From: Epithemia pelagica
Taxonomy: Eukaryota; Protista; Bacillariophyta
Direction: 5' to 3'
Length of the DNA stretch: 64,000 nt
Assembly: GCA_946965045.2 (NCBI GenBank)
Contig: OX337233.1
Coordinates: forward strand, 2,480,001 to 2,544,000
A program made the translations under genes and the position numbers. A model generated the notes under the pieces. It was given only the letters and a program-made list of their open reading frames with translations, searched no databases and was not told the origin of the DNA. This document shows positions 4,879 through 53,358 of the stretch, one piece after another. Numbering within the stretch: position 1 is the first letter of the stretch; the number at the start of each line of letters is the position of its first letter.

Positions 4879-5777
4879 TGCAATGCTCCAAATCCCTTAA
4901 AACGTGTTCCTTACGAATGGCGTTAAGAAGACCTCTTGAAACTGTTCAATACAGTACACTACTGACCACATTGAAGGCGGAAATCCGCAAGTAAAAGAAT
5001 CTACCTAAGTAGGTAGGTAGAAAAAGTGGTTTGTGGTGGCCTCATATGCGGCAAAGCCAATCTCATATTGAATATTGAATATGAAAGTTTTGGGTTCATA
5101 TTGATCAAAACCTTCATATGAAGGGTTTAAGGATTAAGGAGAGTGGGGTAGCGTGGTAAAGGTTTGCAGAATTTTTCAAGTGCCGAGAGATTAATTCCAG
5201 GGTATTGAAGTCACAAAAATTCATAATAACTTTGACTTTAAACTTGAAGTCGTCTTTTCCGCCCCCCTTTGACTTGATTTTCTCTCGAAAGTCATTTACC
5301 CAGGTACTTGTTCCTCACTTATCCAAGACATCGACTCCTCCTCGTCCTCACACATACACTCACTTAATAACACTATGATTAAAATACTTGACCAACTCTG
5401 GGGGGGGTAACGGCCCCCCCACCCATATCCTCGAGCGGGATCCGGAATCGCTCCGCAGTCGCATATCTCCAGAATATGTGATACTGCGTTTGCTGTGGGC
5501 GAGTGTGCCTCCGAGCAGAGAGCCCATCTCCTTGTACTCACAAAGTGAGCCCACATCCTCGAAATATCTTCGCAGAGATGCAGATGTCAGCTGCCATGGG
5601 TTGCCATACCCAAGCATCCAACATTGGAGAGAAACTCCCTGGCTCCAAAGACAGGCCAGCTGACGCGCAACAAGCGACCTAGACTGAACCACCGTAGTGA
5701 GTAATCCAGTCGAGTCTTCTTCCCGTTTGGTCGTTCTCTTATCCATTGTCTCATTCATCTCATCCATCCTTCTCTTG

Positions 5778-7325
5778 TTACAACGACTCCGAAAACTTGA
5801 CTAAGGCCTCGACCGAGGCCTTTGCATCGGAGTACCTCTCAACCATCGTCATCGAGGGCAACACACCTCGCCCCCTCAAATGCTTTTTCCAGCGGTTGTT
5901 CATCTCGATGACATCTCTAGGGATCGCACGGTTCTGAGCCTCTGTAGTGGCACCACGTCTCAACGATCGACGCACACTATAAACCTCCTCGATCTTTGTT
6001 GACTCAACAATCAACTGGGGAAATCGGTGCTGGACTCTTTTCCACAAGGCGTGAAACAACACATCCAGATCACCCACGGACGCTCGCTTGATTTGTCCTT
6101 TCTTCTTGACAATCCGAAACATTGGTCCTGTTGTAATCTTGGCCTCATGCAAGCAACGAATGGCACGTTCCAACCAGAGCCGAACTTCCACTCCCGAGCC
6201 TGTTTTATCGGCCAGTGGATGAATGTAAATTCTAAACGTTCCGTTCGTTTGTTTAAAACGACCAGCCAGCGCCAAAGGTACGTGCGGCTTTCGCTGATAA
6301 TTCAAACCTTCTTCCCAGTATTTCCTCATTAAGCCGACATCAATTTGTGAAATTTCTTCACCTCTCAGTGCCGCCGTGAAGCCCACCACTACCAGTGCCC
6401 CCGTCAATGCCACTTCCTGTTTCCGCAGACCCTGAACTCCACTTTGCCATTCTTCTTCCAGAATTTGGAGACCCGCTAACACTTCCTCCACAGTAACGGC
6501 TTGGTCTGGCATCCAAACATCGCCCATTCGGCGATGACAACCTGCCATAAATCGACGGAACCAATACGAGTTCGTCGAGCTCGCGCTGAAAAATAGTCCT
6601 CCTCTGTCTCCATGAGCCACTGTGGATAATCCACTTCCTCCAGGAAGGGTATGACAAAAGTTGGACACAACTGACCGAATCTTCCGGGCTGTTTCAAACT
6701 GAATCCTTTTTGAATTCTTTCCTTCTCGGAGAGTCTTCATCAAAAGCAAGCAAGCAACATTCAAACCCTGTGAATCCCCTATTGGCACTGGACCTCGATT
6801 CGGCAGTGGATGTGACAATCCAACTGAGTCTGCAATATCCAACAAACCCCGCATCTCTCTCCAATTTTTATCTACCGTTGTTCTCTCTCGAGACCAAAAG
6901 GCATCCAAGTTCGCGCGTCGAATACACAACATCAACAGTCGGTCCTGTTCGCGGTCACTTGGGTATCGTCCATTCATGTTGTAAAAGGAACACTCATCAC
7001 ACTGAAACGGACACATGAGATCGTCACCGACCCGTGCCTCTTGAAATCTCTTTTCATCATCCTCTATTTCCCCATGAAGCTCCGCATCCAACAATGCATC
7101 ATCCAAATCGCCTGCCTCAAAGACTGGAAAGCGATCATGATCCAATTTGCAGTAACACGCCGCATGCCAGATTCCCTGACATACTTTACTCGTGCCCCGT
7201 GAAGCTCCATAATTTGCGCAGCAAATCCCTGACAGGGCCTGTACCGGATGCCCACATTTCTGACAGTTCCCCGTCCACTGAGTCCAATAAGCATTTTGCT
7301 CTTTTGACCTGCCACGGACTTCTGG
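5778..7325 (-). CDS. Tyrosine recombinase (YR) of the DIRS element; frame open from 7325, first ATG at 7016
   Basis: Catalytic signature ALRGEEI (R), RFKQ (K), RSLRRGATT (xxR), NNRW (W), MVERY (Y). N-terminal CPFQCDEC, and upstream in-frame CQKC..CCANYG..CQGIWHAACYC. Confidence 0.9.
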   Translation of the reverse strand, partial: PEVRGRSKEQNAYWTQWTGNCQKCGHPVQALSGICCANYGASRGTSKVCQGIWHAACYCKLDHDRFPVFEAGDLDDALLDAELHGEIEDDEKRFQEARVGDDLMCPFQCDECSFYNMNGRYPSDREQDRLLMLCIRRANLDAFWSRERTTVDKNWREMRGLLDIADSVGLSHPLPNRGPVPIGDSQGLNVACLLLMKTLREGKNSKRIQFETARKIRSVVSNFCHTLPGGSGLSTVAHGDRGGLFFSASSTNSYWFRRFMAGCHRRMGDVWMPDQAVTVEEVLAGLQILEEEWQSGVQGLRKQEVALTGALVVVGFTAALRGEEISQIDVGLMRKYWEEGLNYQRKPHVPLALAGRFKQTNGTFRIYIHPLADKTGSGVEVRLWLERAIRCLHEAKITTGPMFRIVKKKGQIKRASVGDLDVLFHALWKRVQHRFPQLIVESTKIEEVYSVRRSLRRGATTEAQNRAIPRDVIEMNNRWKKHLRGRGVLPSMTMVERYSDAKASVEALVKFSESL

Positions 7326-10300
7326 TTAAAAAAGGACAGAGAAAAGCAACAATCAACGGTTCATGTTGAGACTTGTTCCACAATACACTCCCTACTGGTA
7401 TGGAAAACACAAAATCCGCAACCTTGCCCACTTTTTTCGCCAACGATTTGACATCAACGCTGGACAAACAAAAATATGCGCAGTGTGTGTTTGTATGTGG
7501 CGGGCTTCGCAGAGTTGATCGACTGCGACATCAGCAATGGCCGGGGGTGGAACCCAGACAAAATTTCCCTGTTCGAAAGCTTCGTCGAACCAGTCTCTTG
7601 CCTCCAACGTCTTCCAACCTGCAACATTGTGAGCACACGACATCAACCAATCAACCACGCCCTCTTGTCTTTGGACCACTGTCTTGTTCAGGGGGACATA
7701 CAGAAGCATATCACTCCCCGCCATCACACTCGTCATCAAGTCGCCCCTTGACAAGCCATCCGTCCCTTGTGCTATCATCCTAGTACCTGCAACCCAGACA
7801 ACCCGCAAGAATATGCTTCCTCGCATCTCCAAACGTTTGGTACGCAATGCCAGCTCATATAACAATGGCGATGTGGACGTCCCGCGAAAGAAGGCCGACT
7901 CTGCTGTCGAGTTGTCGGTAAACATAAAAACTTCCGTCCCGAAGGGTATCGTCCCATTCTCCACAAGAGCTTCCAGGCGCAAGACCAAGTTATACAATTC
8001 GCGGAAATTCGATGAGCGGGAACCATAATCCCTGGTCCACAGACCGTGCTCTGTTTCAACTTTATGGGATCCATAGATCCATAACGATGAACCAAAACCC
8101 TCTCCTGAGGCATCCCCAAAAACGATCGCCACCTTCGATCCTTTCCTGGGTCTCGCCAGAATTTTAGGCGGAACCGGATCCTGGGCGAGTGTCGCTAACG
8201 CTTCCACATCGCTGTCAAACCGTGGCACCTTCTTCACCTTAGCTGGAGGGGTTGAATCTCGCAAAGTCAATTCGCTGATTCTCTTCCGTCGATCTTTTTC
8301 GGGCAGTCGCCAGCCTTCATCATCTCGATCCGATCGCCAAGATTCCAATGTCAAGTGGATTCCTTTTAAGTACGGGACCATGATGTCGTATGTTAAGGAA
8401 ACATACACCAAAAATCCCCTAATTCGCTCAAGTTCCTTGCGATCGATCGATTCCTCTGACCTCGCCCATTCCACCAATCTATCAATATGCCCACGCGTCT
8501 TGTTCCACCGCTCTTGTGCCACAGTCTTAAACACCTGCCCATCCGCAGTAGTTTCTACGATCGCTCCAGCCCAAGCACCCGGTGTTTTACTTGGATCTCG
8601 ACGTTTCCTTGCTGCATCCTGCAGCCCAAAGTACGATGCGCCCTTTGCCATTTTGCTAGCGGCCTTCCACGCTTCATCTTCCGAAGGAGCTGTTTCCCTC
8701 AAGTCGTCCACATATGGATGCACATCTGCTGCAATATCCCCGTTGGCCCGAATCTTACTAATCCAGGGCAAAGACGGATCGTATTCGGCGTCTCCAGGTA
8801 AGTTTAAGCGCACATCCACCCATCCAAATATGTTGTCAGGATCGCTCTTATCTCCGAATATAATTCTCTTAACTCTTTGAGCGCATTGGGTGGTCTGATA
8901 CGGGGACGTCGTTAAGCCCATCGCACACCGCGTCCAAGCCTCCCACAAACGAGTCTTCCCGAACTTGTCTTGGAGCTCCTCCGGAAACAAGTCCGTGATA
9001 TCGATTCCCGTGTAACACCTAAGATCGGGATGCACCCAAAAATTCAAGAACATTTCCCCGAAGTCGTTGTCCGCCGACCAAGTCTTTCCCTCCATCGAGC
9101 AAAGCATGGCGTTCACGTTACCGAGACCGAACCAAGGAGCAAACAACGAAGCATTCAAGCCACTCTTGGTCCCATCATAGACCATTCGTATATCGTCTTC
9201 CCCTTTCGGGACCGAAAAGAAACTGGTCAACGACTTAATTCCATTGGTCGGAGCGATGTAAGCTTGTTGTCTCACTTTCGACAACTTCTTCTTTTCCTTT
9301 GCTCTGCTTTTTACATCAGGATTTGCCCTTTGTCTGCGCCGATACGCCGGTCGAGGACCTATCCACATTGGAGCCACTCCATCGCGCATTTCGGCTTGCC
9401 ATTCGAGGACGGGCATTCTCCAAAAGAAAGGAGATGACCCGCCATCCCAGTCCCACCAAGATGCCATGGACGCATGTGTCATTGCACTAAGCCCGGCCTG
9501 GATGGTTCTTTCTCGTAAGTCCTCCTCATCGTCCGCAAAACTCTGAGAGCTCCACCAACTCCAGAAATCCACACTCACTGATCTTTTCCAGTATCGCAAC
9601 GCGCCCTTTCTGATGGAATTCAAAGCGCTAACGATCCGATCCCGATCGTCATTTCTTCCAACACTCAAAAGCCGACAGATACGATCGTCCCAAAGGTAAG
9701 TCGGGATCTTCGCGTCGTCGGATTTCGTTGCCTTTAAGTTCCTGTCCTCACGCCGTTCTTCCGTGTTCAACGAGCCACCGCCCTCTTCACTGTCAGGAAT
9801 TGCATACAAAGGAGTATCCTCTTCCGTCATTCGTGCGTCCTGGGCGGACGTCTCATGCACCTCTCGTTCGACGTGAGTTCCCACATCCGTCTCCACCTCT
9901 TGCTTCCTTCCTCTCGACCCTTCTAACTCTTGATCTTCCTTCCATTCCCGCAACGATCTCGCCACCTGAACCCTGCTTTTAAAAGGAACCACGATGTTAT
10001 CCAACCACTCCTCCAATTCACCCTCTGCTCCTTTCTTATGCATCATGGCTGGAAAATCCATAGTCACAGCCAATTCACGCGCCGTCAACCGTCTCTTGAC
10101 CACTCCGGACGAGGCAAACACACTTGGAAGGTTGTGCTCTGCATAACGATCTCGTTTCCAGCACAATTTGCGATTCAGCACAGAGGCTGGATCCCTGGCT
10201 CCCTTCCTCCGTGTCTTGTCCAACTGTGACAGTTTAATCTCACGTCCATGCACTGTGGGATCCACTACTCCTCGCACGGTTGTTTTGCTCAGGCCCCCGT

Positions 10301-11054
10301 CTAAGAAATCGGCCCAACAATCAACGAAACTTGTGGTGGCTTCACCCTCCGTTTCTCTTTCTGCAACATGAATCCATGATATCAAGTCGGTCACTCCTCC
10401 CAACTCCGAGTGACTGATCCTCATGCATGATTTTCGCCATTTGCTGCAAGGGTATTGTCCATCAGCCGGCGGACCAGAACCCTTGCGACCACCTATCCAA
10501 AACACCAAACGAACTCCATCCATTGACCAAACTGGATGATTTGGACTTGGACACAGGCCCCCTTCGAAGAATACCACATCAACTTGCGAACGCTTCAACC
10601 AATCTCTTGGTTCGACAAACAATATGCGTTGCTTCTTGCATCCTCGGTTCTTGGTCAACTTTGAGTCCTGCGGTATTGCCAACTTCTTCCATTCTTCCGC
10701 CCCTGTTTCATCCTCTATCTCCTCAATGTTTGCCACATCAATCCACTCTATTGACTCAAGTGCCGAGACTGCCCAGAACCAAAAGGGGGTCCCCACACTT
10801 GCCAAACCAATCCGCCACTTTCCTTTTCCTACACCCAAACTTGCAATCTTTCTCTCTGCAACCCCCATTGGCGAATGTTCGCTCATGTCGAGATCTACTT
10901 TACGTTTTGCCACTCGCCGATTGTCTACAAGCCTTTCAACATTCATATTCATCTCGCCAATTCGTTGCTCACCAATCAACTTTTCCTCGCCATTTCTTTT
11001 CGCCCTTTTCCTGACATGTTCCATCTTCCCTTCCTTTTCCATCTCACAATACAC
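7186..11054 (-). CDS. Pol of the DIRS element: degenerate C5-MTase-like domain, RT, RNase H, Dam-like MT remnant; 1-nt frameshift in the A6 tract at 7437-7432
   Basis: RT: FFSVPKGEDDIRMVYDGT, DFGEMFLNF, MGLTTSPY, YVDDLR. RNase H: FGDASG, SNFREL, FTDNSTAE, GTDGLSRG. Then WVPPPA..P.LMS.RWR, continuing in the 7186-7467 frame. Confidence 0.92.
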
Positions 11055-11063
11055 CCGTGACGG

Positions 11064-13447
11064 TCAAGCCTTGTCCTTCTTTCCGTTCTTGTTTGAAGCT
11101 GCTACGGCCGAGTTCACTGACCTCTGCAACTTGTCAAGACGATCCTCCACACTGGACTTCAAGCCATCGAATTTTGACCGAGGAGTGGCGAAACGAATGA
11201 GGTGCTCATGAAGGATGAGCGCTATCTTGGGGTGGCCACTAAACTCCGCCACTCGATACTCCTGCATCACCTCATGAGCCCTCAACGTTCCCCACAACAT
11301 ACCCGCCGGGGTATTCGAAGCTCTTCCCGGTGCTCGGGCCTCCCGCAGACTTTTGAAAACTGCCCGCACGCAATGCGAGATCAGAATCCACACCTCCTGC
11401 TCGCTTGCCTCGCTCTCGGCCTGGACCTGGCGATGATACCTCACCATCCAGTGGCAGAGGTCATCCCAGAAGGCCTTGCTGAGGTGGAGCATTTCCTTCG
11501 CCACGCTTGACGGCTCTGTCCCAAACGCAAACAATTCACCTATGGCTTGATCCAGCGTTTGTCGACCATCGCGAACATAATCCAGAATGCGCTGATGAAT
11601 ACCTTCGCGGCCTGACGGAGGATGGAAATCCTCAAACTTCGGAACTCCGCCAAGAGCGCGCGAATTCGTCGTCATGCTCTGGTCTGAACCCTTGCCCAAC
11701 AACGGGGGGACCTCCAAATTGAAAGACGCGATGTAAGCCGTATGGTAGGGAGTTTTATCCCTTACCTTGGCTGTGGTGGCACGAAGATTTGCCGCACGTT
11801 CTTCATCCAAGCTTGTATCGGAAGTGGCTAACGACAACAGCGACACTGCATCCACAAAAACATGGGGATCACCCAGAGCATCATGCAAGGTAAGCCAAGA
11901 AAGACAAAACATCCGGGAAGGGAACACAATCGAGCCAACCGTGATGGCCTCGTTATCTATTTGTTCCTGTAGATCCTTGAATTCCGTTCGAAGCACCGTC
12001 ATCTCTTCCTTCATTCGTTGAAGCTCCTCTTTCAAAACCGTCGTGACAGACGACATGCCTGTGGGACTCGTCGAAACTGGAGCACCCGTCGAAGCTGCCG
12101 GTCCAACACTCCCTCCCAGCACTGCTCCCACTGAACCCCCACCAATCGTCCAACCGAACATGCCTCCACTCCCAGACGACAATCCACCGGCGCCATTTGC
12201 CTGGCTACCAGCAAACTGCTGCGAACGTTCCAAATTTTCCATCCTTCCTTTTAACTCCTGCAAAAGATCGTCCCACTTTCCTCCCGGATTAGACTTGTCC
12301 TTGGTGGATTTGGACAATAGCGCCAACGTCGGGTTCACGAATTGTTTCCGAAAATCACCCTGCTCCGAGAAGAACGTCTCCAGCTCGGCCTTTACTTCGG
12401 CCTTTACCACGGCTTTCAACAAATCGGCCTCTCTTTCGAGAGACTCCAATCGCGCAGACAACTCGGGAGCAACCGCCTGAGAACCCAAACGCTTTTCGAC
12501 TAGATCTTGAATGGAACGCATGGTTGCGGTACAATGCTGCAAAACTGAGAAAGCCGAATCAGTACCGAACTCTTCTGGACGCCGACCCAACAATGAATGG
12601 AGGACCGATAACTTGACATTGAGCTGTTCAATGGCTTCCTCTTGTTCCTCTTCTACCATCTTGCGCTTGTGGGACGAACGCTGACAATCATCACGCAAAA
12701 GATTGACGTTGTCAACCAAATTACTCCATGCACCACTCTGCAAGATCTTGACGGAGGGAGTTGGCTGCTGAGAACCAATGTCCGTTGGCACCTCTTTCCA
12801 AGGGAGGGATGAACGGCCGACTGGAGTCTTCAGTCCCACTTCACCCAACTCATCAAGTTCCACTACCTCCTCGTCACTATCACTCCCCGACACAGTTCCA
12901 ACCTTCACCCGCTTAGCAGGCTTGGGTGTCATAGCAGCAAACTTAACTTCTGCCTTCGTGTTCGCCATCACCTTAGCTGCAATTGTAGGACTCACAGTAT
13001 CGCCCGCCTCGCGGGCAACGTCTTGTAGAGATGCGAACGTGGCTTGCCAACTCTCGAGGGATCGCGGACTCAACTCGAGTTCACTCCAGTCCACATCCCG
13101 AACACACGAAGCCGGAAGAACAGGTTGACAGAAAATCGTATCTGCCGCGTCGGAATTGGAAGAGACGCTACCACCCCGAATAAATATACCAGCAGAGTCA
13201 TCCCCCACCAAAGAAGCCCAGTCTTGTTTGCGAGCCGAATGCGAAGCCACGGAACAATCGGAACGAACACACACTCGCTGCCCCGCACCAATGATGCCGC
13301 GGCATAACAACTCAAAACTAGGTTGTTCGAAACGAACAATACCGTAGAGAGAACCCGAACGAAGGGCCCCCCCCCCCCGGTCACAGACTCACCTGACGAC
13401 CCCACAGAAGGAGAAGAATCCGGAGTACTTCCCCACTCAAACTTCAT
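11064..13447 (-). CDS. ORF1 (Gag-like) of the DIRS element; probable ATG at 13447, frame broken at the G12 tract (13378-13367)
   Basis: 748-aa ORF 13310-11064 with N-terminal C-x10-C-x4-C-x4-H and coiled-coil regions. It has no ATG of its own at the 5' end; upstream MKFEWGSTPDSS... joins in frame if the G tract is 10 or 13 nt. Confidence 0.8.
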
Positions 13448-13607
13448 GATAAACGATGACACGAATGAGGTGGATGGCACGGCCGAACAGGGAGGAAAAC
13501 GAAAAAACCGAAGCGAAAGAAGCAGAATACACCTAATCAATGGGTGATCAAATCCTTGATGACTGCGCACCTTCTTCTTTCCAACAATTTATGATTGCTG
13601 AACTTTT

Positions 13608-13639
13608 GTTGGGACAGTCATTCAAATGACTGTCCCAAC
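13608..13639. other. Perfect 15-bp hairpin in the 5' UTR of the DIRS element
   Basis: GTTGGGACAGTCATT-CA-AATGACTGTCCCAAC. Confidence 0.85.
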
Positions 13640-14288
13640 GAACTCTCTCGACCTGAGTACTCGTTGGGATCGATGTCTTCTCTGCGTTCGTCCGTCGGTC
13701 CCTTCTTGACCGGAGCGGTACGATGCGTACCCCAGACTTAACTTCCCAACTTATAGTCAAATATACCAATCTCAGGCTTTTTGACTTCAATACCCTGATT
13801 GATTCCCTCTTTAACGCGACTGATCACTTTTTACATAATATCCGGGACTCATCGAGAAGTTTTCTACGATCACGACCAATCGACCGTTATAATATGTCAC
13901 CTGCAGGGAAAAACTGGCTATGCGTGCAGCCGGCGCGAAGACGATTTCTTGTTCATTTTGACCCCTTTCTTCGATTGACCATGGGGAAAAAATATTACAA
14001 TAGAATCTAAATTCATCATATACTAGCTACCAATTTATATCTCAAACAGTTATGCCGTACAAGGCACCATGGTAGCCACCTCATGCAATGCGTGCACGGC
14101 CGCCCCTTTTTGGACCATTGTTCGCATTACTCATTTAATCTTGATCACGGCCTTCAAACCCGGATGTAAAACTTCGACAATGATTCTCTCTGATGAAACG
14201 GCATGGTGAAAGTTGTTTTAACATCAATATGTTCTTTCTATTACTCTCTTTATCTACTTGATAGACTAAAAACGGATACTAGATCGGA

Positions 14289-14591
14289 CCGATCCAAAGA
14301 TCACCACCATTTTCATGCTTTTCCTAAGTACGAGATTGGTGACAAATCGATTTTTTAGCGTACATATGTCGTTGTCAAACGGTGGTTGGTCGCTCATAGG
14401 GCCCTTCTCCATTCGCACGGATTTCGACATGGGGCATTTTGCTCCGATCTAAAGATCACCACCCATGCTTTTCCTAAGTACGAGATTGGTGACAAATCGA
14501 TTTTTTAGCGTACATATGTCGTTGTCAAACGGTGGTTGGTCGCTATAGGGCCCTTCCCCATTCGCACGGATTTCGACATGGGGCATTTTGC
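14289..14591. repeat. Tandem duplication, ~150-bp unit x2
   Basis: CATGCTTTTCCTAAGTACGAGATTGG...GGGGCATTTTGC starts at 14314 and 14464, near-identical copies. Confidence 0.9.
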
Positions 14592-21790: not shown

Positions 21791-24700
21791 TTATGCCATT
21801 GTGTGCAGAAATCCTCCTACGATACCAAAGAGTAACACACCAATATGTTGTGTGAGGTGATGACTGGACGATGACCTTAATGAGATTCGTTCCGTTGTAG
21901 TTGTTGAAGAACGATTTAATCCATCGCGGTTTGTTCCAAATGCGTTGTTCACACCTACGGTAGAAGGTGGACGGGACGTGTTTGGGTTAGGGACAGCTTG
22001 TATTGGTGATGGGGAAGGGGGAGTTGACGGTATCGACGGAAGTTGGGATGGGTGCCGGGTTGGCGAGACGGAAGGGTGTTTCGTTGGAGAAGGAGAAGGT
22101 GGAGGTGTGGGAAGGAACAGTCTTGGAACGGTTTTCTCACTGCATATTTCCTCTACATTGCGCTTCACGTCAATTTTCGTATTGTGTGGTCTCTTCGATT
22201 CCGTGTCATTGTACAACCCACTCATCGCCTGCAATGCACGGCTTCCTGGGCAGTTGGAAGTGGCGGCGTTCCATCCAGTTCCTGGCCCTACCTTATAGGG
22301 AGTGTTGTCGAATGAGAGATTGTCTCGAGTTTGTTCCAATGGAAGGACGACGCTGGGAAATGGGATTGCAATAGCTTCGGACGATTGGACAGCAGCACCA
22401 GTGCTACCAGGACCACGGTACCCGTTGGAAAACAGCAGAAGTCCCAGAGCATAGGAATTGTAGATGCTGTTCACATCAGTGAGTATTTTGGGAAGCTTCG
22501 CCCCTGGAGCAATGTCGAAAGATGTTGCTGTGGACGCAATCGTGGATGGAACATTGATTGTCATGTACGCTGAGCTATCGTGCGGCTGTGATATTCTTGG
22601 ATACGTTGCTGACGAAAAGCTCACACCAATCGTACCAGAAGATGTTATCCCCATATCCTTCGAACATGCTCTTATGATAACTGTTGCGCTGTTTGTTGGA
22701 TGGTCTGCGACAAAGCCAGTGCATTCCCATTCACCTCCTGCTACCTTGAGTCTGCAGTCTGATGTGCCAATATCATTCGTTCGAGGACCGCGATTTGCCA
22801 AGACGTAGTCTTCGGTCGAGTCCCCATTAACATCAATTGAAACTTGGATCTCTGTGTTAGACAAAGATTGTCGACGTTCCCACAATTGAAATGCAAATTC
22901 GAGAATGAAGCCACAGGTGTCATCAACCTCGACTGTCCTGAACCCTATGTACTTAAAATCTGCTGGTGGCGACGTAGTCTCCCCGTTTTTGGGATTTGGT
23001 TCTGCGTCGTCCTCACTAACGACCAACAACTCATATAGTTCCATTTGTGCTGTGCCAGCCCCGTTATTTTCAAGGCCGATTGCAAAATCTGCAGGGAAAA
23101 TGTTGTTGTCCACGGGTAGGCGTTTCTTATTGGCCGTGACATCGGCAGCTTTCCGCAAAATACCGGTAAACGGAATGTTAATGTCATGACCAGTGGTTGA
23201 ACTAAGTGTAATCCATCCATCAATCTCATTCTTATCCAGTGTCCAGGCGCTTGCGGAGCTTAAACCACCCGAAGTCATATAGTTGGATGGTACCTTCGAG
23301 GCTTCAATAGAGAAAACCACTTCCATGGTCATTTTTTCTGAACAGGATTGTTGAGACGACGTTGGAGATAGGGACCTGGTGGTTATAGTCATTGCTCCAG
23401 AGAGCTGGACCATCAAGCTCCGAAACTCGGCTTGGGCAGTGATTTCTTGGCACCTGTCCACCATGCGTGTTACTTCAATCGTTCTTCGAATTTCCATGTT
23501 CTTTGAAACATCTACAACTCCAAGGGATATGGATGGTTGGCCATCAAATTCTGAGTATGCCCAAAAACTGGCCTCGACAGCCTTGGCAATGTCCACTTCC
23601 CCACTACCAGCCAGGGAGATTGGTGCCTCTGAGGAGCTACCAATCCGGTATTTAATTGTTTTGCGAGCATTGTTCATGAGTATAGCTTTGATGGCAAAGG
23701 CAGAACACTCGGTGCATTTGGATACGACAATGGCGGCTGCTCCTGCAACAACGGGGCTCGAGTACGAAGTTCCTTGTGCGGTGAATCCATCAGAACCTTT
23801 TCCAGAGTTGGCCACAATCATCTTGTCCCCGGGTGCACTGATATCAGGTTTTAATATGCTGAGAGTACCCGGCCCTCTGGCAGAAAAAGATGCCATGAAT
23901 CCATGGGGCTGAGTGGTGGTTGCTCCGACGGTGATGGCGTTAAAGACATTAGCTATTCCTCCAAGAATGAAAGGCCTGTTTCCAAAGTTTCCGCTGGGCA
24001 CAACAATTGTCATACCAAGCAACGTAGCATAACGCTCAATCACTCGAGCAAGCATGTGATAGTATCCATTGGCAAATCGCTGTCCAAGAGAAACTGTGCG
24101 CACACAAGAAAGGACAGCTCAGTTTTGAGCCAGATAAATATCTTTCCAACGCGACATAATTTTTGTACGTACTGTTGACAACATCTGCTCCTTTTTTATT
24201 GGCGTAATCAAGTGCCGCAATCACAGCATAGTCTGGACATATACCTCTGTCGTTACATACTTTTGCCGCAATCAGTTCCACGTCGGGAGCCATGGCCAAA
24301 ATGGCCGTTGCCACTCCCGTTCCATGTCCCGATATTTGGTCGAGAGGATTCGTGTCCTCGTCCGTACTCGCAGCTCCACCGACAAAGTTATGGCCATCCA
24401 CGACACGCAGGGTAGGAAAGAGGCCATCGGCACGTGGACGAGTGCTAGCAGCGGCAGTTTCAAAGGCTGTTGTGGACCCTTCTCCCCCAAAGATGGAGTG
24501 GGTATAATCAATACCAGAGTCAATGACCGCCACTCGAACTCCTTGCCCTCCCAAACAGTGGTCCCTGCGCACTTTTCCTGCACCAAGGTATGTGTCGGCA
24601 ATGACACGAATATCCTGCGTCTCACCGGATAAATCTCGAATGCCGTCATGTGTATTTCCATTGTTATCCTCTCCAACAACGGATGAGTCCTCTGTCAAGT

Positions 24701-25097
24701 CGACAGAGTCTGAAACGGATACCACACCAGGAATCGTCTCAACCCATTCGTATACTTCGGTGTCTTCGGAGATCCCTGATACCGACAGAAAAATGGCATT
24801 TGCAGCATTTCGCTCCGCATGGAGAACTTGGACATTCTCTGCGTCGTAGTGGTCCATGATGGCCTGAATGATTCGAGACTGCTCTTTCTCCAGGTCTTCT
24901 GCATCTTCCGGAGCTAATAAATAGGGTGACACAGATCCTTCCACGACGATTCGACGTTGTGATGTTTCGGACGATCCAAAAACTCCAGTTTCCTCACTTT
25001 CTCTTCTTCGAGTGTAATAGGAGGGGCCATGTCCAAGGCCTTGTCTGTTCCATATCAAAAGAAACAAACATGCTCTCCACAGCCCAACATGCACCAT
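21791..25097 (-). CDS. Secreted/GPI-type subtilisin-like S8 serine peptidase; join(25097..24173,24093..21791)
   Basis: Triad VAVIDSGID, GHGTGVA, GTSYSSPVVAG. Intron 24172-24094 (GTACGT...CACAG) restores DVVNISLG. Pro/Ser/Thr stalk and hydrophobic C-terminus. Confidence 0.9.
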
Positions 25098-44484: not shown

Positions 44485-45185
44485 TTAGAGCATACGAGAC
44501 AAGCCACGGCCCTTGAATATTCCAAGCGTACGCTTGTCTCCTCCATGGAGATCCGACGCGAGGAACATTACCGTTCCACTGTTTCCCCTTTCACAGGAGG
44601 ACGGAATAAATGTGAAATAGTAATGAGGTTTCTTTGTTTTGTCATCAATGACAACGGACAGGAACGTCCCGTGGACCATGCCACTTGGACATTGTGAAGG
44701 AAGTTGTGAAGGAAGAGATCGAACCGTGGCGGAAGGAGATGGACAAGGAAGATTGCGGAAGGAGACGGGACAAACGTAAGGAAGATTGGACCTTCCTTAT
44801 ATTTGTCCCATCTCCTCCCGCAATCTTCCTTGTCCCATCCCTCCTTCCACAACGGTTCGATCTCTTCCTTCACAACTTCGTTCACAGTATCTTTGAGACC
44901 GTCCAGAATAACACGCAACCAAACCTGATTGGATTCACTTGAAACATTGCCAGGTGCTGCTAGTTGGAGGCTGTCAGCAATATCATTGCTGTTCCTGTTT
45001 CCGACATGGGTGTGGGAAGAGGTGTCCTGTGTAGAAGTGTTGTGGCCAACCTCAGAACAATGCGATCCCGCATTGTCCTCCATAGCATCCTCTTCATTTG
45101 AGTTCTGTTTAATTGACAGTGAACTCGCCATCGTAATAGAATCAACAACGTGAAGTCGATTCACAGATATTTCTTCCAATCCCAT
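44485..45185 (-). pseudogene. Copy B of the coiled-coil/trypsin-like protease gene, internally deleted and rearranged
   Basis: N-terminus MGLEEISVNRLHVVDS..GNVSSESNQ paralogous to 52802-53048. 44485-44685 (SVVIDDKTKKPHYY..ERGNSGTVMF) paralogous to 45575-45750. The His/Asp part of the protease is missing. Confidence 0.85.
44691..44889. repeat. Long fold-back inverted repeat (~95-bp arms, ~7-nt loop)
   Basis: GAAGTTGTGAAGGAAGAGATCGAACCGT...GGACAAGGAAGATTGCGG (44700-44784) is the reverse complement of 44792-44880, apart from a few substitutions and indels. Confidence 0.9.
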
Positions 45186-45230
45186 GTTGTTCCAGGAAAA
45201 GTGGATAGGACCGGTTCTTTGTTTTTCAAT

Positions 45231-46371
45231 TTACAGCAGACAGACCCAGTCGTCGCTACTTTCCTCGTCCGAAGAAGAATCTTGCGAGCTCCCTGAGGAA
45301 TTTGAGAGAGAGGCATGAAAAGGGAATCGCTCGTGCGAAGGGTAGTTGTCGGGGGTTTCAATCAATAAGTAATTTTTCGGTTCTTTTAGTTTTGGAGGCA
45401 TATCTGTCCAGATTACTTCATTAGAGTCGCCTTGGACTGAAATCAAAACTCCTTCGTTGGATGGTATTGTCCCTACTATAAGCTTCACCACCTTGGCTCG
45501 TGTCACCTCTTCGGGAAAGGGGACAATTATTCCACGGGCTTTTATTCCTTCTTCTTTTTTGCTCATGCCCTTGAAGATTCCAAGAGCACGCTTGTCCCCT
45601 CCATGGAGATCCGATGCAAGGAACATTACCGTTCCGCTGTTTCCCCTTTCACCAAAGGAAGGAATGAAAGTGGAATAGTAATGAGGTTTCTTTGTTTTGT
45701 CATCAATGACAACGGAAAGGGACGTCCCCTGGACCGTGCCACTTTGACATTTGCCAGCCGTAGATTCTCCTGCGACAGCATTGCATAATTCATCGTATGG
45801 TATAAAATCTGCCTTGGGTATAAATTTTCCTTGTGACGAGGGACATTTATCAAGCTGTAACAAGACGATGTCTTTGCTGACATCCTTGTGGCCTTGGAAA
45901 TCATCATCTGCCAAGTGCTTTGCGAAGAGGACATGAGTTACATTGCAACCGCACACCTTCAAGTACATGGCCACATCATCGGGAATTTCAAGTAATGTCT
46001 GTTTGCAATTACCACTTTCACAACGAGTTGCTATTGACTGCTTGATACAGTGTAGCGCTGACACCATGCAGAAGTTCTGCTCAAATTCGACCAAAGTCCA
46101 TGTAGCTGATCCCCCACTCGTGCGAGCTTTTTGCAGATGCTCTTTGTCACCGGCAATGACAAGATCCAAAGCTCCTACCGCTGCCGATGGAAGAGCTCGG
46201 GCAATCAATTTGTCCGTTTTATCTAAACGATTCATCAATCTTCCTTCCATGTTTCCCATCTCCTTCCGCAATCTTCCTTCCATGTTTCCCATCTCCTTCC
46301 GCAATCTTCCTTCCATGTTTCCCATCTCCTCCAGAATATCACGCAAAAATGCCTGATTGGATTCACTTGAA
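45231..46371 (-). pseudogene. 3' part of copy A: coiled-coil repeat + trypsin-like serine protease, split by Copia from its 5' part (53048-52802)
   Basis: SALHC (His), KDIVLLQL (Asp), GERGNSGTV (Ser). Removing the Copia and one TTGAA TSD gives one continuous ~460-codon frame from ATG 53048. Confidence 0.8.
46236..46332. repeat. 33-bp coding tandem repeat x3 (EMGNMEGRLRK)
   Basis: CAATCTTCCTTCCATGTTTCCCATCTCCTTCCG at 46236, 46269 and 46302 (last copy partial). Confidence 0.92.
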
Positions 46372-46609
46372 TGTCACAAAGTGGGGCGTACTGTCCATCA
46401 GTGGGGTTGACGGGCAGTCTTGTAGCGCGCGTGTCGGCATGGGAAAGTAGATAGATTCAAATTCCCACTGTCACCATAATTTCCAAATCTGTTGTTTTGA
46501 TCTTCCTTTTTCGTCGTTAGCCGCATCATCGAACCAAGGTGACCATAGTGGAGCATCAACTCTCCGCTGCGTACGACTTTGAGCAACAGCAACATCGTCT
46601 GTTGCGACA
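46372..46609 (+). repeat. 5' LTR
   Basis: TGTCACAAAGTGG...GTTGCGACA; identical to the 3' LTR except at 2 positions. Confidence 0.97.
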
Positions 46610-46622
46610 GGTTATGAGCCCA
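46610..46622 (+). promoter_or_regulatory. Primer-binding site complementary to the initiator tRNA-Met anticodon arm (half-tRNA priming)
   Basis: GGTTATGAGCCCA directly after the LTR; reverse complement UGGGCUCAUAACC contains the CAU anticodon loop. Confidence 0.85.
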
Positions 46623-46727
46623 AGTAAAGGGTTGTAAGCTTGCTTTTGTTATCGAACAAGAGCTGGAGAAGAAGAAGACTTCGCGTACCATCGACGAAAC
46701 GAAACGGACTCGACGCTGAGAAGAACC

Positions 46728-48218
46728 ATGTCTACTGGAGGGGAATTGCCACCGCCACCGGGACCACCTAGCACGCCTCGAGCGCCGCGTCCCCCTACAC
46801 CGCCACGGCTTGGAGGATTGACCGGAATCCATCCATGGACTGGAGGCCGACCGACTGATGTGACGTTCACCGCAACGACACGAACCGTTCCGCGGAGCCC
46901 ATATTGCTACCAGTTGCAAGATCCGACGGAAGCCCACAAGGCGCTCAAACAGAAGACGACCATTGTGGATGGTAATGAAAGCGAGCCGCGCAAGTTCACA
47001 CGAGATGAAAAGAGCCTCACAATTGAGCAATTGGCAGAGATGGTCGCCGACCACATGGAGTTTCATGGGATGGACAGTGAATTCTACCTTCCTGATCCAC
47101 AAGATCCCACCAGACTTGTTGACATCCTGCAAGAAGACTCCGAGTTCACCCCAGCCTTTGTTGTCAATCACTTCAGAACTGGAATGGGAGCAACAACACC
47201 CTTGTACGATGACTACTCCACCAACAACATGGACCTTGCGTATAAGGCCATTATGTCACTGTTGGATGACTCAGTGAAGAACAGTATTTGCCCACTGCTA
47301 CCACGCGATTTGAAGTATGGGCCGATCCTCTGGATTTACGTCGTGCGTGAGGTTAGAACCGCCTCCTTCCAGCGAATCAAAGCGTTGAAACAACAACTGG
47401 AAGCCCACAAACTTCGCCAAACAGCTGGAGAAGACGTGAAAGTGTTCACCACCAAGTTTCTACAGACTTGTGTGGAGCTTGGAAAGAATGTGCCAAGTGA
47501 CGCCCCATTTCTGCTGAATGAACAGCTCTGCACATCTTCGGTAGAACAGTTCCGTGTAAAATTCATGGCTCAGAGCACAGCTGTCAATCAATGGGTCACC
47601 AAAGTCCATGGCCTCTCAAGAGCCACCATCGAAGGACGAGCAACCGAACCCGACTATATCTCAGTGCAACAGCTTGTCGAAGAAGCGAATGCAGAATATA
47701 CCTTGTTGTTGACAGCCAAGCGTTGGGGTCCGTCTGGAAAGAGCGACTCTGGAAATCCGCCAGAAGCAATGATGTCGTTCACGAAAACCAAGATTAACAA
47801 TCTCGTTCAGAAGAGTGTCTCTGCTGCCTTGAAAGGCGGTACCAACAACGGAAAGGGCACGTCCAACAATGGCGGTCGAAAGTGTCATATCTGTGGATCA
47901 CCGGATCATTTAAAGAAAGACTGCCCCAAAGCCAACAACAACGACGGCAAAGGAGGCGAACGAAAGTCGAAAGCTCCGAAGGCTCCTTGGAAATCCAAAC
48001 CACCAGGTGATGGAGAGCCTGAAACGAAAAATGTGAACGGAACAACGTGGCATTGGTGTGCCATTTGTGGATTCTGGCGACTATCGCACGGAACGGCGAC
48101 GCATGATAACGATTATGCGAAGAAAGCGAATCAAACTGGCGGTACGAAACCGGCCGCATCGCTTGCATCTCTAAAATATTGTGGAGCTGCAACTATCTTA
48201 GACGAAGACGACGAATGA
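46728..48218 (+). CDS. Copia Gag
   Basis: Zn knuckle CHICGSPDHLKKDC and a second WHWCAIC..W..SHGTATH motif. Confidence 0.9.
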   Translation: MSTGGELPPPPGPPSTPRAPRPPTPPRLGGLTGIHPWTGGRPTDVTFTATTRTVPRSPYCYQLQDPTEAHKALKQKTTIVDGNESEPRKFTRDEKSLTIEQLAEMVADHMEFHGMDSEFYLPDPQDPTRLVDILQEDSEFTPAFVVNHFRTGMGATTPLYDDYSTNNMDLAYKAIMSLLDDSVKNSICPLLPRDLKYGPILWIYVVREVRTASFQRIKALKQQLEAHKLRQTAGEDVKVFTTKFLQTCVELGKNVPSDAPFLLNEQLCTSSVEQFRVKFMAQSTAVNQWVTKVHGLSRATIEGRATEPDYISVQQLVEEANAEYTLLLTAKRWGPSGKSDSGNPPEAMMSFTKTKINNLVQKSVSAALKGGTNNGKGTSNNGGRKCHICGSPDHLKKDCPKANNNDGKGGERKSKAPKAPWKSKPPGDGEPETKNVNGTTWHWCAICGFWRLSHGTATHDNDYAKKANQTGGTKPAASLASLKYCGAATILDEDDE

Positions 48219-48230
48219 CTCATCGGGCGG

Positions 48231-51200
48231 ATGCTCATTGCTATGTATTCTTATTTGGTGATGATGAATCCGTTGCCCATCCTCTTCGCTTTCATTCGCT
48301 TGTTCCTCTCTCTTTGGCGCACCGTCTTGCCACAACAAAAACCTCGCCGCTCAACCACTCGCAAAACTCGTCGCTGCTTTCGCTTCTCGCCGATCTTGGT
48401 ATTGCCTGGTCTGTTCTGTTGCTATTCGGGTATGATGATGAGCACACATTCCTTCGTTTTGGGAATTGATGCACCGCTCACCAAGTTTCCATCGCTTGCC
48501 TTTGCAAGTCGCGTCTACCATCGACGCTTGTTTGGGCAACCCAATAGCAAAATCACCCTTGCTTTCAAGTATCATCGACGAACCTTCTACCTTCCACCAC
48601 GATGGCGTAGACGACGGAGACGCAAGCGTCGTGACCTTGACGATGCAAGCCCAGCAGACGACGATCCTCCACCTACTCCGTTTCCAAAACCTCCTGACCC
48701 TGACCCGTTTGAAGAACTGTCTTTCTCCATTCTGTTTCCCACGGCTGTCCCTCATCAAGCACAAGCAAACACTGCCGAGCCGTCAACAGAAGGAGCACCG
48801 TTGGCTTGGAACTTTCTTTCGGAATCCTCCGCCTCAACCTTTTCGGTCACGATCGATTCTGGTGCAACGATCACCATCACCCCATTTCGAGACGATTTTG
48901 TTGAATACTCTGCCCAAACTGGTTCAGTGCTGCAAGGATTGGCTAAAGGCCTCCCAAAAGATGGAACCGGAATCGTCCGCTGGAGAATGCAACTTGACGA
49001 CGGGAGCTACACCGAAATGGAAGCACCGGCTTACCATGTCTCCACCGCTCGTTGCCGCTTATTTTCTCCGCAAAGCTACTTGCAACACAAAGAAGCCACG
49101 TCCGCCGAGAACGTGCTTGAAAGTTTCGTGATCCGTGGTTCGACTCTCCGGTTCGAAATCGCAGACGGCAAAGTTGCAAGCATCTCATACCATCCAGAAA
49201 ACAACCTTCCTACGTGCACTATGGCGAATGTTCAACCTTCTCCGTCGGTGAATCAAGCATGTGTCACCCACACACAAAATCCAAACCTGACGACCGCACA
49301 AAAAGAACTTATGAAATGGCACTATCGGTTGTGCCATCATGGTTTGGCGGCTATTCAACGTCTCATGCAATCTGGAGCCCTTGGTCCGTCCTCTCTCATC
49401 AAGGCTGCATCCAAGTGTGAATTGCCCAAGTGCGCCAGTTGTCAATTTGGCAAAGCAAAACGGCGTCCGACTGATACCTCCACGAAAACGATTGTCCGCG
49501 AGAGGGAGTATGGCTTGAAGAAAGACCAGTTGTTCCCCGGCCAACGCGTTTCCATGGATCATTTTGTCGTCAAGCAAAAGGGCCGCCTCTATTCGTCTCG
49601 AGGCCAGTCTCACGAGGACAGCATGTACTCTGGTGGGTGTATCTTTGTCGACCACGCCACCGGGGACATCCATATTGAACACTTGGTCAATTTCACCGCC
49701 ACCGAAACCATCGCCGCTAAAGAGCGTTACGAAAAGCGCATGTTTGATTTCGGCATTACCGTGCAAGCGTACCAGTCGGATAACGGAATCTTCGCGTCGA
49801 AAGCCTTTGTCAACGAAATTGAATCCGGCTTGCAAAACATAAAGTTCAGTGGTGTCGGTGCCCATCATCAAAATGGGATTGCCGAACGTGGAATCGGAAC
49901 CATCCTTTCAAAGGCACGCACTATTTTGCTTCATGCAGCCATTCGATGGCCAGACGCTGCCGATATCAGTCTGCGGCCGATGGCGGTCGATTACGTGGTA
50001 TTCCAGCATAACCACATGCCGCGAACCAGCACCGGCATGATGTCTCCCATGGAAATGATTATGAAATCAAAAGTTGGCAGACAAGCTCTTGAAGACATGC
50101 ATGTATGGGGATGCCCCTGTTACGTCTTGGATCCAACTCTCCAAGATGGGCATAAGCTACCAAAATGGAAGCCAAGGTCACGTCGTGGAATCTTCCTTGG
50201 TTTTTCCAAACGACACTCGTCCAGGGTCCCACTAGTCCTCAACACGAAAACGGGACACATTTCACCGCAATTCCACGTCGTCTTTGACGACTGGTTTACA
50301 AGCGTAATTGGAGCCAGTCCTGATCGTCCGTTTGATCAAAACGAGTGGACACAACTGTTTGCGGATTCCCGTTACCACTACGCCTTCGATGAGGACGATC
50401 CGATTACCTTGGCAGATGAATGGGTAGACCAGCATGAAGACCAAGTAGATCGGTCAGCTCAAATCCGCATCACTCAACAACGAGTTCGCTTTGCCGATCA
50501 AAACGATCCTCCTGAACCAGATACAACGGCTCAACAGAGGGAGCAGGACCAGCCTGCAACAAACGATCCACCGTCCGAACCAAATCCGCCTCAACAACAA
50601 GAAGAACCACCATTACAACCTGTCGAAGAAGAAGAACCTCCAGCCATTGAAGAGCCACCTTCTTCACCACAGCAACAACCACAACCAGAACCGTCCCCAT
50701 CTCTCCGTCGTTCCGGACGAACAAGAAAAGCGCCATTACGATGGGGGTATGACGGTACACAGGGTGCAGGGTACCAGGCCCTAGCGAGTTTTGCAGCATT
50801 TGTCACCAACGCGACGACAAGCGCAGCATACCAAGCGTTCCTTGACTTGGATACCGACTCCGACACTTTTGGATTCCGCGATCCAATCGTGTACCAAGCT
50901 TCAAGCAAAAAGAATAATCCAGATCTACCGTCTTACTATGAGGCAATGACTGGTGATGACCGTGAGGGCTACGTAGCTGCCATGGGAAATGAAGTGAAAG
51001 AGCTGGAAGACAAGGGAACCTGGGTCATGACACTCCAATCCGAGATGGAAAAGCGGGGCGGCAAAGCCTTGCCTTCAACTAGGGCATTTCGGAGAAAGCG
51101 CTACCCCGACGGTTCGGTACGAAACCTAAAAGCACGGCTGTGTGTTAGAGGTGACAAGCAAACCTACGGCTTGGATTACTTCGAAACCTACGCACCTGTT

Positions 51201-52517: not shown

Positions 52518-52554
52518 TCATGCAAAACTATAATCTTACGCGGCTACTACGTCT

Positions 52555-52563
52555 GAGAGGGAG
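52555..52563 (+). promoter_or_regulatory. Polypurine tract
   Basis: GAGAGGGAG abutting the 3' LTR. Confidence 0.85.
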
Positions 52564-52801
52564 TGTCACAAAGTGGGGCGTACTGTCCATCAGTGGGGTT
52601 GACGGGCAGTCTTGTAGCGCGCGTGTCGGCATGGGAAAGTAGATAGATTCAAATTCCCACTGTCACCATAATTTCCAAATCTGTTGTTTTGATCTTCCTT
52701 TTTCGTCGTTAGCCGCATCATCCAACCAAGTTGACCATAGTGGAGCATCAACTCTCCGCTGCGTACGACTTTGAGCAACAGCAACATCGTCTGTTGCGAC
52801 A
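52564..52801 (+). repeat. 3' LTR
   Basis: See 5' LTR. Confidence 0.97.
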
Positions 52802-53048
52802 TTGAAACATTGCCAGATGCTGCTAGTTGGAGGCTGTCAGAAGTATCATTGCTGTTCCTGTTTCCGACGCGGGTGTTGGAAGAGGTGTCCTGTGTAGAAG
52901 TGTTGTGGCCAACCTCAGAACAATGCGATCCCCAATTGTCCTCCATGGCATCCTCTTCATTTGAGTTCTGTTTAATTGACGGTGAACTCGCCATCGTAAA
53001 AGAATCAACAATGTGAAGTCGATTCACAGATATTTCTTCCAATCCCAT
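52802..53048 (-). pseudogene. 5' part of protease gene copy A
   Basis: MGLEEISVNRLHIVDS...ASGNVS. The sequence across the empty site matches copy B at 44920-44960 (GGATTCACTTGAAACATTGCC). Confidence 0.85.
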
Positions 53049-53358
53049 GCTCTTCCAGGAAAAGTGGAAGAACGTCTGTTTCGCACAAAAAAAAATAATG
53101 GGAAGGCGGCGGGTTTCCATTTCATCTTTCAATCCAAACCCATCATCTTCGGCTGTAATGTGTTAGGAGAACGTAATCGCACCTATGTCGCGAGAATGGT
53201 TTCTCCGTTAGCAGGAGTAGCTTTGTTCTTTTTACAATTTTGTGGACAGACAAAATTGAAAGGCTCTATCCTCTCCCTGTCCAATCGGCATCTAGTTATA
53301 GGTAACGTTAGTACTGGATTCTACGTGGATCTTCCTTCAACCTGACGACGAATCCACC

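Follow-up and report, generated by a model that had tools for sequence, protein, structure and literature searches.

What remains of a methyltransferase domain carried at the front of a retrotransposon polyprotein, and what could it do there? The question is raised by a 64,000-nucleotide stretch of the Epithemia pelagica genome (contig OX337233.1 of assembly GCA_946965045.2, positions 2,480,001 to 2,544,000; hereafter the window), which carries a probable tyrosine-recombinase retrotransposon on its minus strand. A preliminary description, made from the sequence alone, had proposed that Pol of this element starts with a degenerate C5 cytosine methyltransferase, citing five motif-like segments in the order of C5 enzymes upstream of the reverse transcriptase (RT) and within the same open reading frame (ORF). 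All five are indeed in frame and in order (Table 1). Our analysis points to a pseudo-enzyme that is retained across a large clade of related elements.

A predicted C5 methyltransferase fold at the front of Pol

The N-terminal part of Pol is predicted to form a complete two-lobed C5 cytosine methyltransferase fold. An AlphaFold2 model of the domain, built with 79 sequences, has a predicted local distance difference test score (pLDDT) of 91.0 and a predicted template modelling score (pTM) of 0.89, and all the rows listed in a Foldseek search of the PDB are C5 methyltransferases (best E 1.9e-6). The VIA structure search, which is independent of Foldseek and covered 48,161 chains, placed C5 enzymes at ranks 1–19 without exception (Z 9.2–17.1), the next row having a Z of 6.6. 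Its best match is M.HhaI (Z 17.1), with 261 of 327 residues aligned at a root-mean-square deviation of 4.0 and 8% identity, the alignment spanning residues 12–317 of the model and 3–326 of the chain; DNMT3 chains stand at ranks 14–16 with Z 11–12. A search of a viral structure library agrees with the C5 fold. The route proposed in the preliminary description, structure prediction followed by Foldseek, thus returned the proposed fold and not a structure devoid of a Rossmann S-adenosylmethionine (SAM)-dependent methyltransferase core, and the motif order first noticed is not a product of chance.

At the level of sequence, Pfam DNA_methylase (PF00145) was not among the families listed for the 6, 81 and 14 proteins scanned, and PDB sequence searches with the domain gave no match. 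Profile-profile comparison with eight reference enzymes, which mis-registered the N-terminal half of the domain, detected a weak colinear match over motifs VIII–X only (E 0.0013, probability 19%). ESM Atlas features led to DNA_methylase clusters for 28 of 30 matches with a score of 0.91, only 14–46% of the members of these clusters carrying the family.

Loss of the catalytic motifs across the family

To quantify motif states, 168 domain sequences were aligned and 150 of them (below 70% identity) were kept, including 73 found via RT alone; P0073, a low-complexity repeat, and P0024, short and poorly aligned, were dropped before motifs were counted. The motif patterns were sought over whole loops, allowing for register error, and as a control the same patterns match 8/8 reference C5 enzymes, GxG being matched in 7/8 (one is truncated at the N-terminus). 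Among the homologues, the GxG of the SAM-binding motif I occurs in 4/90, the Pro-Cys (PC) bearing the motif IV nucleophile in 2/117 loops, EN of motif VI in 3/124, RxR of motif VIII in 6/133, and neither QxRxR of motif VIII (0/133) nor GN[AS] of motif X (0/137) was found at all. No clade member with intact catalytic motifs was found among the 150 non-redundant homologues. The absence of PC, ENV and QxRxR first noticed in the window copy is therefore a property of the family.

Conservation is concentrated elsewhere in the domain. The H-x3-G-G that takes the place of the motif VIII signature is present in 127/133 homologues, and individual residues are nearly fixed: His156 in 133/134, Glu268 in 140/142, Asp274 in 139/142 and Thr/Ser163 in 128/136. 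Two basic residues, Arg174 (97/138) and Lys300 (126/144), are also conserved. Fourteen columns are at least 90% invariant, nine of them being located in motifs VIII–X or corresponding to the Gly at 211, and these invariant columns are mostly Trp, Gly and Pro together with the motif IX pair. Of the motif IX- and X-like segments, the first is conserved (134/140), and in the second the family has P-x-K in place of GN[AS] (Table 1).

The preliminary description proposed checking homologues for an invariant Cys in GLCP. This Cys is not conserved, the five closest relatives covering the site reading GMSP, GLSP or GIIP, and the Asn of DNIVVP is not conserved among homologues either. Any Cys at all is seen in 15/117 motif IV loops, at scattered positions, and the only common Cys of the alignment (position 214, 69/139) belongs to the small lobe and is Ile in the window copy. 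A Cys placed after strand 5, as in enzymes of the RNA 5-methylcytosine type, was also considered and rejected, the alignment having no such column. Between the two options left by that description, a dead and repurposed domain is favoured, and a highly divergent enzyme acting through the GLCP Cys is not supported.

A different kind of activity was also weighed, namely an enzyme with a rebuilt site, performing unusual methyltransferase chemistry or a new reaction on His156, Thr/Ser163, Glu268 and Asp274. The invariance of these four residues is enzyme-like, given a mean identity of only 25%, but Glu268 is simply the Glu normally found in motif IX, and at least 7/136 sequences have Leu, Met or Tyr at position 163. 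The family also lacks GxG, none of its Cys residues near the active-site loops is conserved, and strand 2 does not end in a conserved acidic residue (Asp in 12/97). We regard such an enzyme as decidedly improbable. The domain is very probably not a canonical methyltransferase, and its sequence pattern is most likely that of a pseudo-enzyme that has lost methylation.

Retention, co-descent and selection

A search of 1.84 billion representatives returned 73 relatives of the domain. Searching with RT/RNase H yielded 1,303 clusters, and the following counts use the best 120 of these. Among Pols of at least 1150 aa found by RT/RNase H alone, 76 of 77 contain the domain; with the identifiers used for the profile excluded, it is carried by 67 of 68, some of which are possibly close to profile loci. 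Over all lengths, 98 of the 120 listed proteins have it, compared with 0/120 in a control with shuffled N-termini.

The history of the domain follows that of RT. For 55 proteins, the domain tree was compared with the tree of RT and RNase H: all 28 well-supported domain splits were recovered, 39 of 52 splits were common to both and no strong conflict was observed; the domain has a mean identity of 25%, compared with 52% in RT. The ratio of non-synonymous to synonymous substitution rates (dN/dS) of the domain is 0.12–0.26 for those locus pairs whose dS exceeds 0.7 (16 of 31, not independent of one another), and the domain is 52–64% identical where its flanks are 12–29% identical. Because of this near-complete retention, the agreement with the RT tree and the low dN/dS, the domain counts as a core component of this retrotransposon clade, under purifying selection between diverged subfamilies.

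The clade is likely one of diatoms and other aquatic microbes. Among the 120 listed proteins, the sole named relative, a fragment without the N-terminus, belongs to the diatom Mayamaea pseudoterrestris, and assignment of the element family to diatoms is plausible. Locus searches found nothing in viral contigs and, with the domain query, nothing in metagenome contigs; the Pol query gave 49 loci.

Relation of the domain to the gag stop codon

The frame upstream of the domain was examined for 22 locus ORFs that start with it. In 16 of them, an in-frame ORF of at least 90 aa lies directly upstream across a single stop; four run off the contig and two do not fit. The control frequency of such an upstream in-frame ORF is 28/261 among antisense ORFs. 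The intervening stop is TGA in 16 of the 22 loci, the first Met lies at least 25 residues inside the domain in ten, and in two of the 16 (L006 and L012) the stop is displaced. In the window copy, the gag TGA is directly upstream of the Pol frame and in the same frame. The simplest reading of these sequences is read-through of the gag stop, which would yield a Gag-Pol fusion. Separately, one locus (L012:1410-2342) has Trp at the position of the gag stop, so that Gag is fused directly to the pseudo-methyltransferase, in a copy that is broken further down.

Several observations weigh against the picture of a selected, catalytically dead domain made by read-through. The first ATG of Pol in the window copy (11042) stands seven codons after the gag stop, so that translation of Pol need not depend on read-through in this copy, and splicing would be another route. 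Residues were assigned to motifs from the order of the strands and from motif patterns; the output of the fold tools contained no residue pairs or coordinates. The basic character of the domain (median isoelectric point 9.4 for 97 full domains) is weak evidence, as real C5 enzymes span 5.5–9.5. Selection on the domain is much weaker than on RT/RNase H, for which dN/dS is 0.03–0.05 (three pairs were measurable for both), and the 15 closer locus pairs give 0.20–1.2, some with broken frames. No domain match was seen in P0157 (1155 aa) or in the shorter P0163, P0180 and P0207, which may be real losses or late start calls. Among near-identical copies of the window element's family, differences in the domain comprise six synonymous and 12 non-synonymous changes, one of them a stop (pN/pS, the corresponding ratio of polymorphisms, 0.57; p 0.19). 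This is as expected for decaying insertions and gives no evidence of selection.

The latter two observations, proteins without the domain and the lack of a significant synonymous excess among recent copies, are what a decaying relic, carried in frame without a function, would produce. We give this explanation almost no credence: it is opposed by retention in all but one of the long Pols, congruence of the trees, the invariant columns and the dN/dS values between diverged subfamilies.

Candidate roles of the pseudo-enzyme

We lean slightly towards a pseudo-enzyme that is part of a Gag-Pol fusion and binds the element's own RNA or cDNA. Under this hypothesis, an ancestor of the clade would have captured a C5 methyltransferase once. 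Methyl transfer would then have been lost together with SAM binding, as motif I changed to P-x-W and the catalytic loop was shortened, while the motif VIII/IX/X interface that joins both lobes would have been kept, and with it, probably, the nucleic-acid cleft. Translation past the gag stop would place the domain inside the particle beside RT, where it could hold or shield template RNA or new cDNA before integration by the recombinase.

The position immediately after the gag stop would also suit a module with a purely structural task, spacing Gag from RT or promoting oligomerisation in the position that the protease occupies in retroviruses, with the fold kept only for assembly. Invariant Trp, Gly and Pro and the motif IX pair are typical of a folding core. 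However, at 25% identity both lobes have been retained, some 300 residues, which exceeds the needs of a spacer, and the basic Arg174 and Lys300 are retained along with His156; a purely structural module appears distinctly unlikely.

Inactive DNMT3L-like proteins work through partners, and the domain could similarly face the host, as an anti-silencing decoy or a targeting module that binds CG sites, host methyltransferases or chromatin and thereby blocks methylation of new copies or steers integration. Such a role shares the fold, motif-loss and retention data with the particle role, and the fast divergence of the domain compared with RT fits a host-facing surface. DNMT5 methylates diatom transposons (PMC9998398). 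The observed/expected CpG ratio across the element is 0.97, without depletion, but host DNA and a Copia element in the window are also undepleted (0.93–0.96), so that CpG content does not discriminate; for the domain's own coding stretch the ratio is 0.73. Expression by stop read-through would, moreover, yield the domain in small amounts and coupled to Gag and RT, a better fit to a role in the particle than to a nuclear decoy. We consider a host-facing function unlikely, and binding of the element's own nucleic acids remains our preferred reading.

More broadly, and only tentatively, this abundant, unannotated clade may have recruited a captured cytosine methyltransferase as a non-catalytic component without which its life cycle cannot proceed, with the front domain acting on element cDNA or on the host methylation machinery so that new copies escape silencing, and with RT-RNase H lying between two dead methyltransferases of different classes.

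Comparison with known systems

DNMT3L and other inactive DNMT paralogues have a C5 fold without catalysis and are under selection, as single-copy host cofactors of active DNMT. The window domain differs from them in being encoded by an element and in keeping the small lobe. With bacterial and phage C5 enzymes (M.HhaI, M.MpeI, M.HaeIII, Dcm) and Dnmt2, it shares the whole-length fold, the strand order and motif IX; it differs in being only 8–14% identical, in having lost motifs I, IV, VI, VIII and X, and in being fused into a retroelement polyprotein.

Capture of DNMTs by retrotransposons is documented. DIRS and LINE elements of Symbiodinium and Gypsy elements of Klebsormidium carry DNMTs with conserved residues, and in yeast such domains, when isolated from retrotransposons, methylated CG (PMC5890265); the word diatom is absent from the main text of that paper. 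SymbioDIRS-Dnmt3, a tyrosine-recombinase element with split repeats, resembles the window element in having a C5 domain in the Pol ORF with RT and a separate ORF for the recombinase, a putative one in the window element. Its DNMT domains, however, have the key residues intact, cluster with Dnmt3 and are detectable by domain search (PMC5890265). In contrast, the window domain has lost the catalytic motifs, is silent in Pfam and has its best structural match in bacterial M.HhaI (Z 17.1) and not in DNMT3 (Z 11–12). The EpiLTRs of Cymbomonas and Euglena likewise combine a cytosine-type and a Dam-type methyltransferase in one retrotransposon, but they are long terminal repeat (LTR) elements with a chromodomain and with recognisable DNMT4-related and NPP-bearing Dam domains, the NPP pocket being conserved in Dam-type domains (bioRxiv 10.64898/2026.05.21.726589). 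The window element, by comparison, is a probable recombinase element in which both methyltransferase-type domains lack catalytic motifs and flank RT-RNase H.

PAT-like DIRS elements share gag, RT and RNase H with the window element, and their putative MT domain and recombinase have candidate counterparts there, whereas no N-terminal C5-fold domain is described for them in the accessible text of PMC4157794; the window element further differs in having no long repeats and in carrying gag and pol in frame across one stop. The adenine methylase of DIRS elements is considered likely inactive (PMC4738411), which provides a precedent for a dead methylase in Pol. The available text of PMC9998398, on diatom DNMTs, makes no mention of DIRS. 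A literature search, with subscription journals, Repbase entries and supplements outside its scope, yielded no description of a dead N-terminal C5 domain. Retrotransposon capture of DNMTs with intact motifs has thus already been published (SymbioDIRS-Dnmt3, EpiLTRs), and within the accessible literature the dead N-terminal form at the head of Pol appears to be new.

In published surveys, the methyltransferases of retrotransposons were identified through domain searches and interpreted as self-methylating enzymes. The present clade is large (more than 1,300 Pol clusters), is invisible to domain searches and keeps the fold without the chemistry. This suggests that mobile elements use the methyltransferase scaffold for something other than catalysis, and it is relevant to the question why DIRS elements retain an apparently inactive adenine methylase. 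It also offers a compact domain, predicted to be well folded and with few invariant residues, in a group where CG methylation keeps transposons silent.

Element organization and classification

The coordinates of the element and its parts are collected in Table 1. Contigs from three of four runs contain a joint from 5302 to 13727, which matches the element bounds, and the genes neighbouring the element in the window are eukaryotic.

Table 1. Features of the retrotransposon and of its Pol N-terminal domain (window coordinates)
Feature	Position	Strand	Remarks
Probable tyrosine-recombinase retrotransposon, whole, ~8.4 kb	5304..13730	(-)	GTAC at both ends (5304-5307, 13727-13730); no long terminal repeats in window copy
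Gag-like ORF, 774 codons stop to stop	11064..13388	(-)	Ends in TGA in frame with Pol; putative Gag, from its position
Pol open frame, 1223 aa	7392..11063	(-)	Order: pseudo-C5 methyltransferase, acidic linker, helical region, RT, RNase H, Dam-like domain; frame shift near 7430
Predicted C5 cytosine methyltransferase-fold domain, 317 aa modelled	9927..10877	(-)	Catalytic motifs absent; fold searches and motif counts
Motif I-like strand and loop	10779..10817	(-)	FxGxG replaced by family P-x-W, 63/90
Motif IV-like strand, shortened loop	10527..10583	(-)	Pro-Cys not conserved
Motif VI-like strand (VRLVFWIGG), between IV and VIII	10488..10514	(-)	No ENV
Motif VIII-like segment	10356..10418	(-)	H-x3-G-G-V-T replaces G-x-P-Q-x-R-x-R; His 133/134
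Motif IX-like segment, R-x-L-x3-E-x5-D-x-P	10050..10103	(-)	Best kept C5 motif, 134/140
Motif X-like helix	9948..10001	(-)	P-x-K replaces GN[AS]V
Reverse transcriptase (YVDD)	8420..9390	(-)	Limits approximate; fold of relative P0102, Z 16.9 to MLV RT
RNase H	7730..8140	(-)	Limits approximate; P0102 fold, Z 13.0 to archaeal RNase H1
Dam-like (DIRS MT) domain	7186..7590	(-)	W-x-PPPA replaces NPP; split near 7430 by one-base deletion, tail in frame 7530-7186
Tyrosine-recombinase-like ORF, Cys-rich N-terminus	5778..7325	(-)	LRGxE, SxRRxATT, NRW, C-terminal Tyr

The Gag-like ORF has no significant Pfam match. RT and RNase H were placed by means of a modelled relative, P0102, which is 75% identical to P0008, a sister copy. 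The Dam-like domain is alpha/beta, and ESM Atlas gives a lead, and a lead only, to Dam clusters (0.88, with 11% of members); in the fold search with the whole P0102 model, none of the matches listed belongs to this domain. NPP occurs in the Dam-like domains of 0/74 clade members. Near 7430, one base is missing compared with sister copies, which shifts the last part of Pol, and the frame is intact at the corresponding site in contigs of three runs and in protein P0008; the deletion is either real damage in the window copy or an assembly error.

The recombinase-like ORF gave no match in Pfam and PDB searches. Its LRGxE, SxRRxATT, NRW and C-terminal Tyr, which we take to be the recombinase active site, are conserved in 5/5 aligned ORFs. 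In three of five elements, the recombinase frame opens exactly at a pyrimidine-rich tract ending in AG (window 7350-7322; L010 near 8523; L027 near 6823), and in the window copy no ATG precedes 7016 within the conserved Cys-rich N-terminus. The recombinase may be made from spliced RNA.

By the definitions of PMC4157794, the element looks like a member of the DIRS order, nearer to PAT-like than to Dirs1-like elements. The DIRS label given to it in the preliminary description is appropriate at the level of the order, but the long inverted terminal repeats and internal complementary region that characterise Dirs1-like elements are not found in the window copy, and the layout looks more PAT-like. 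No long repeats, direct or inverted, were found in this copy, the best inverted match near the ends being 26 nt at 73%. One of the 11 loci tested (L035) has a 792-nt tandem repeat, which fits split direct repeats.

Contigs of run X1 join the 5' end of the element (window 5304-5333 / 13700-13730) via GTAC to a sequence 23/30 identical to the 3' end; this is either a circle junction or the B1-A2 junction of split repeats in a related subfamily. Three relatives (L016, L027 and L035) were assembled as circular contigs of 8–10.6 kb with end overlaps of 115–127 nt, and many protein matches are also on contigs of 8–10 kb. The circular contigs could be DNA circles or collapsed repeats. In runs X2 and X3, contigs link window position 5720 to 13513 by a short GC-rich linker, a junction that represents an internally deleted, non-autonomous derivative of the element. 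A 20-nt inverted repeat is present on both flanks (5198-5217, 13778-13797), which suggests that the insertion site lay close to the centre of an imperfect palindrome. A tandem duplication of about 150 nt (95% identical) lies just outside the element at 14289-14591.

Other features of the window

A Copia-type LTR retrotransposon occupies 44939-53068, with a zinc knuckle ORF (46728-48218) and Pol (48231-52517). Its repeats are located at 44939-45205/52802-53068 and 46369-46609/52561-52801, and the left one seems to be split by about 1.1 kb with inverted ends. A subtilase gene extends across two adjacent ORFs on the minus strand (24036-25097 and 21791-24055), a split due to an intron or a frameshift.

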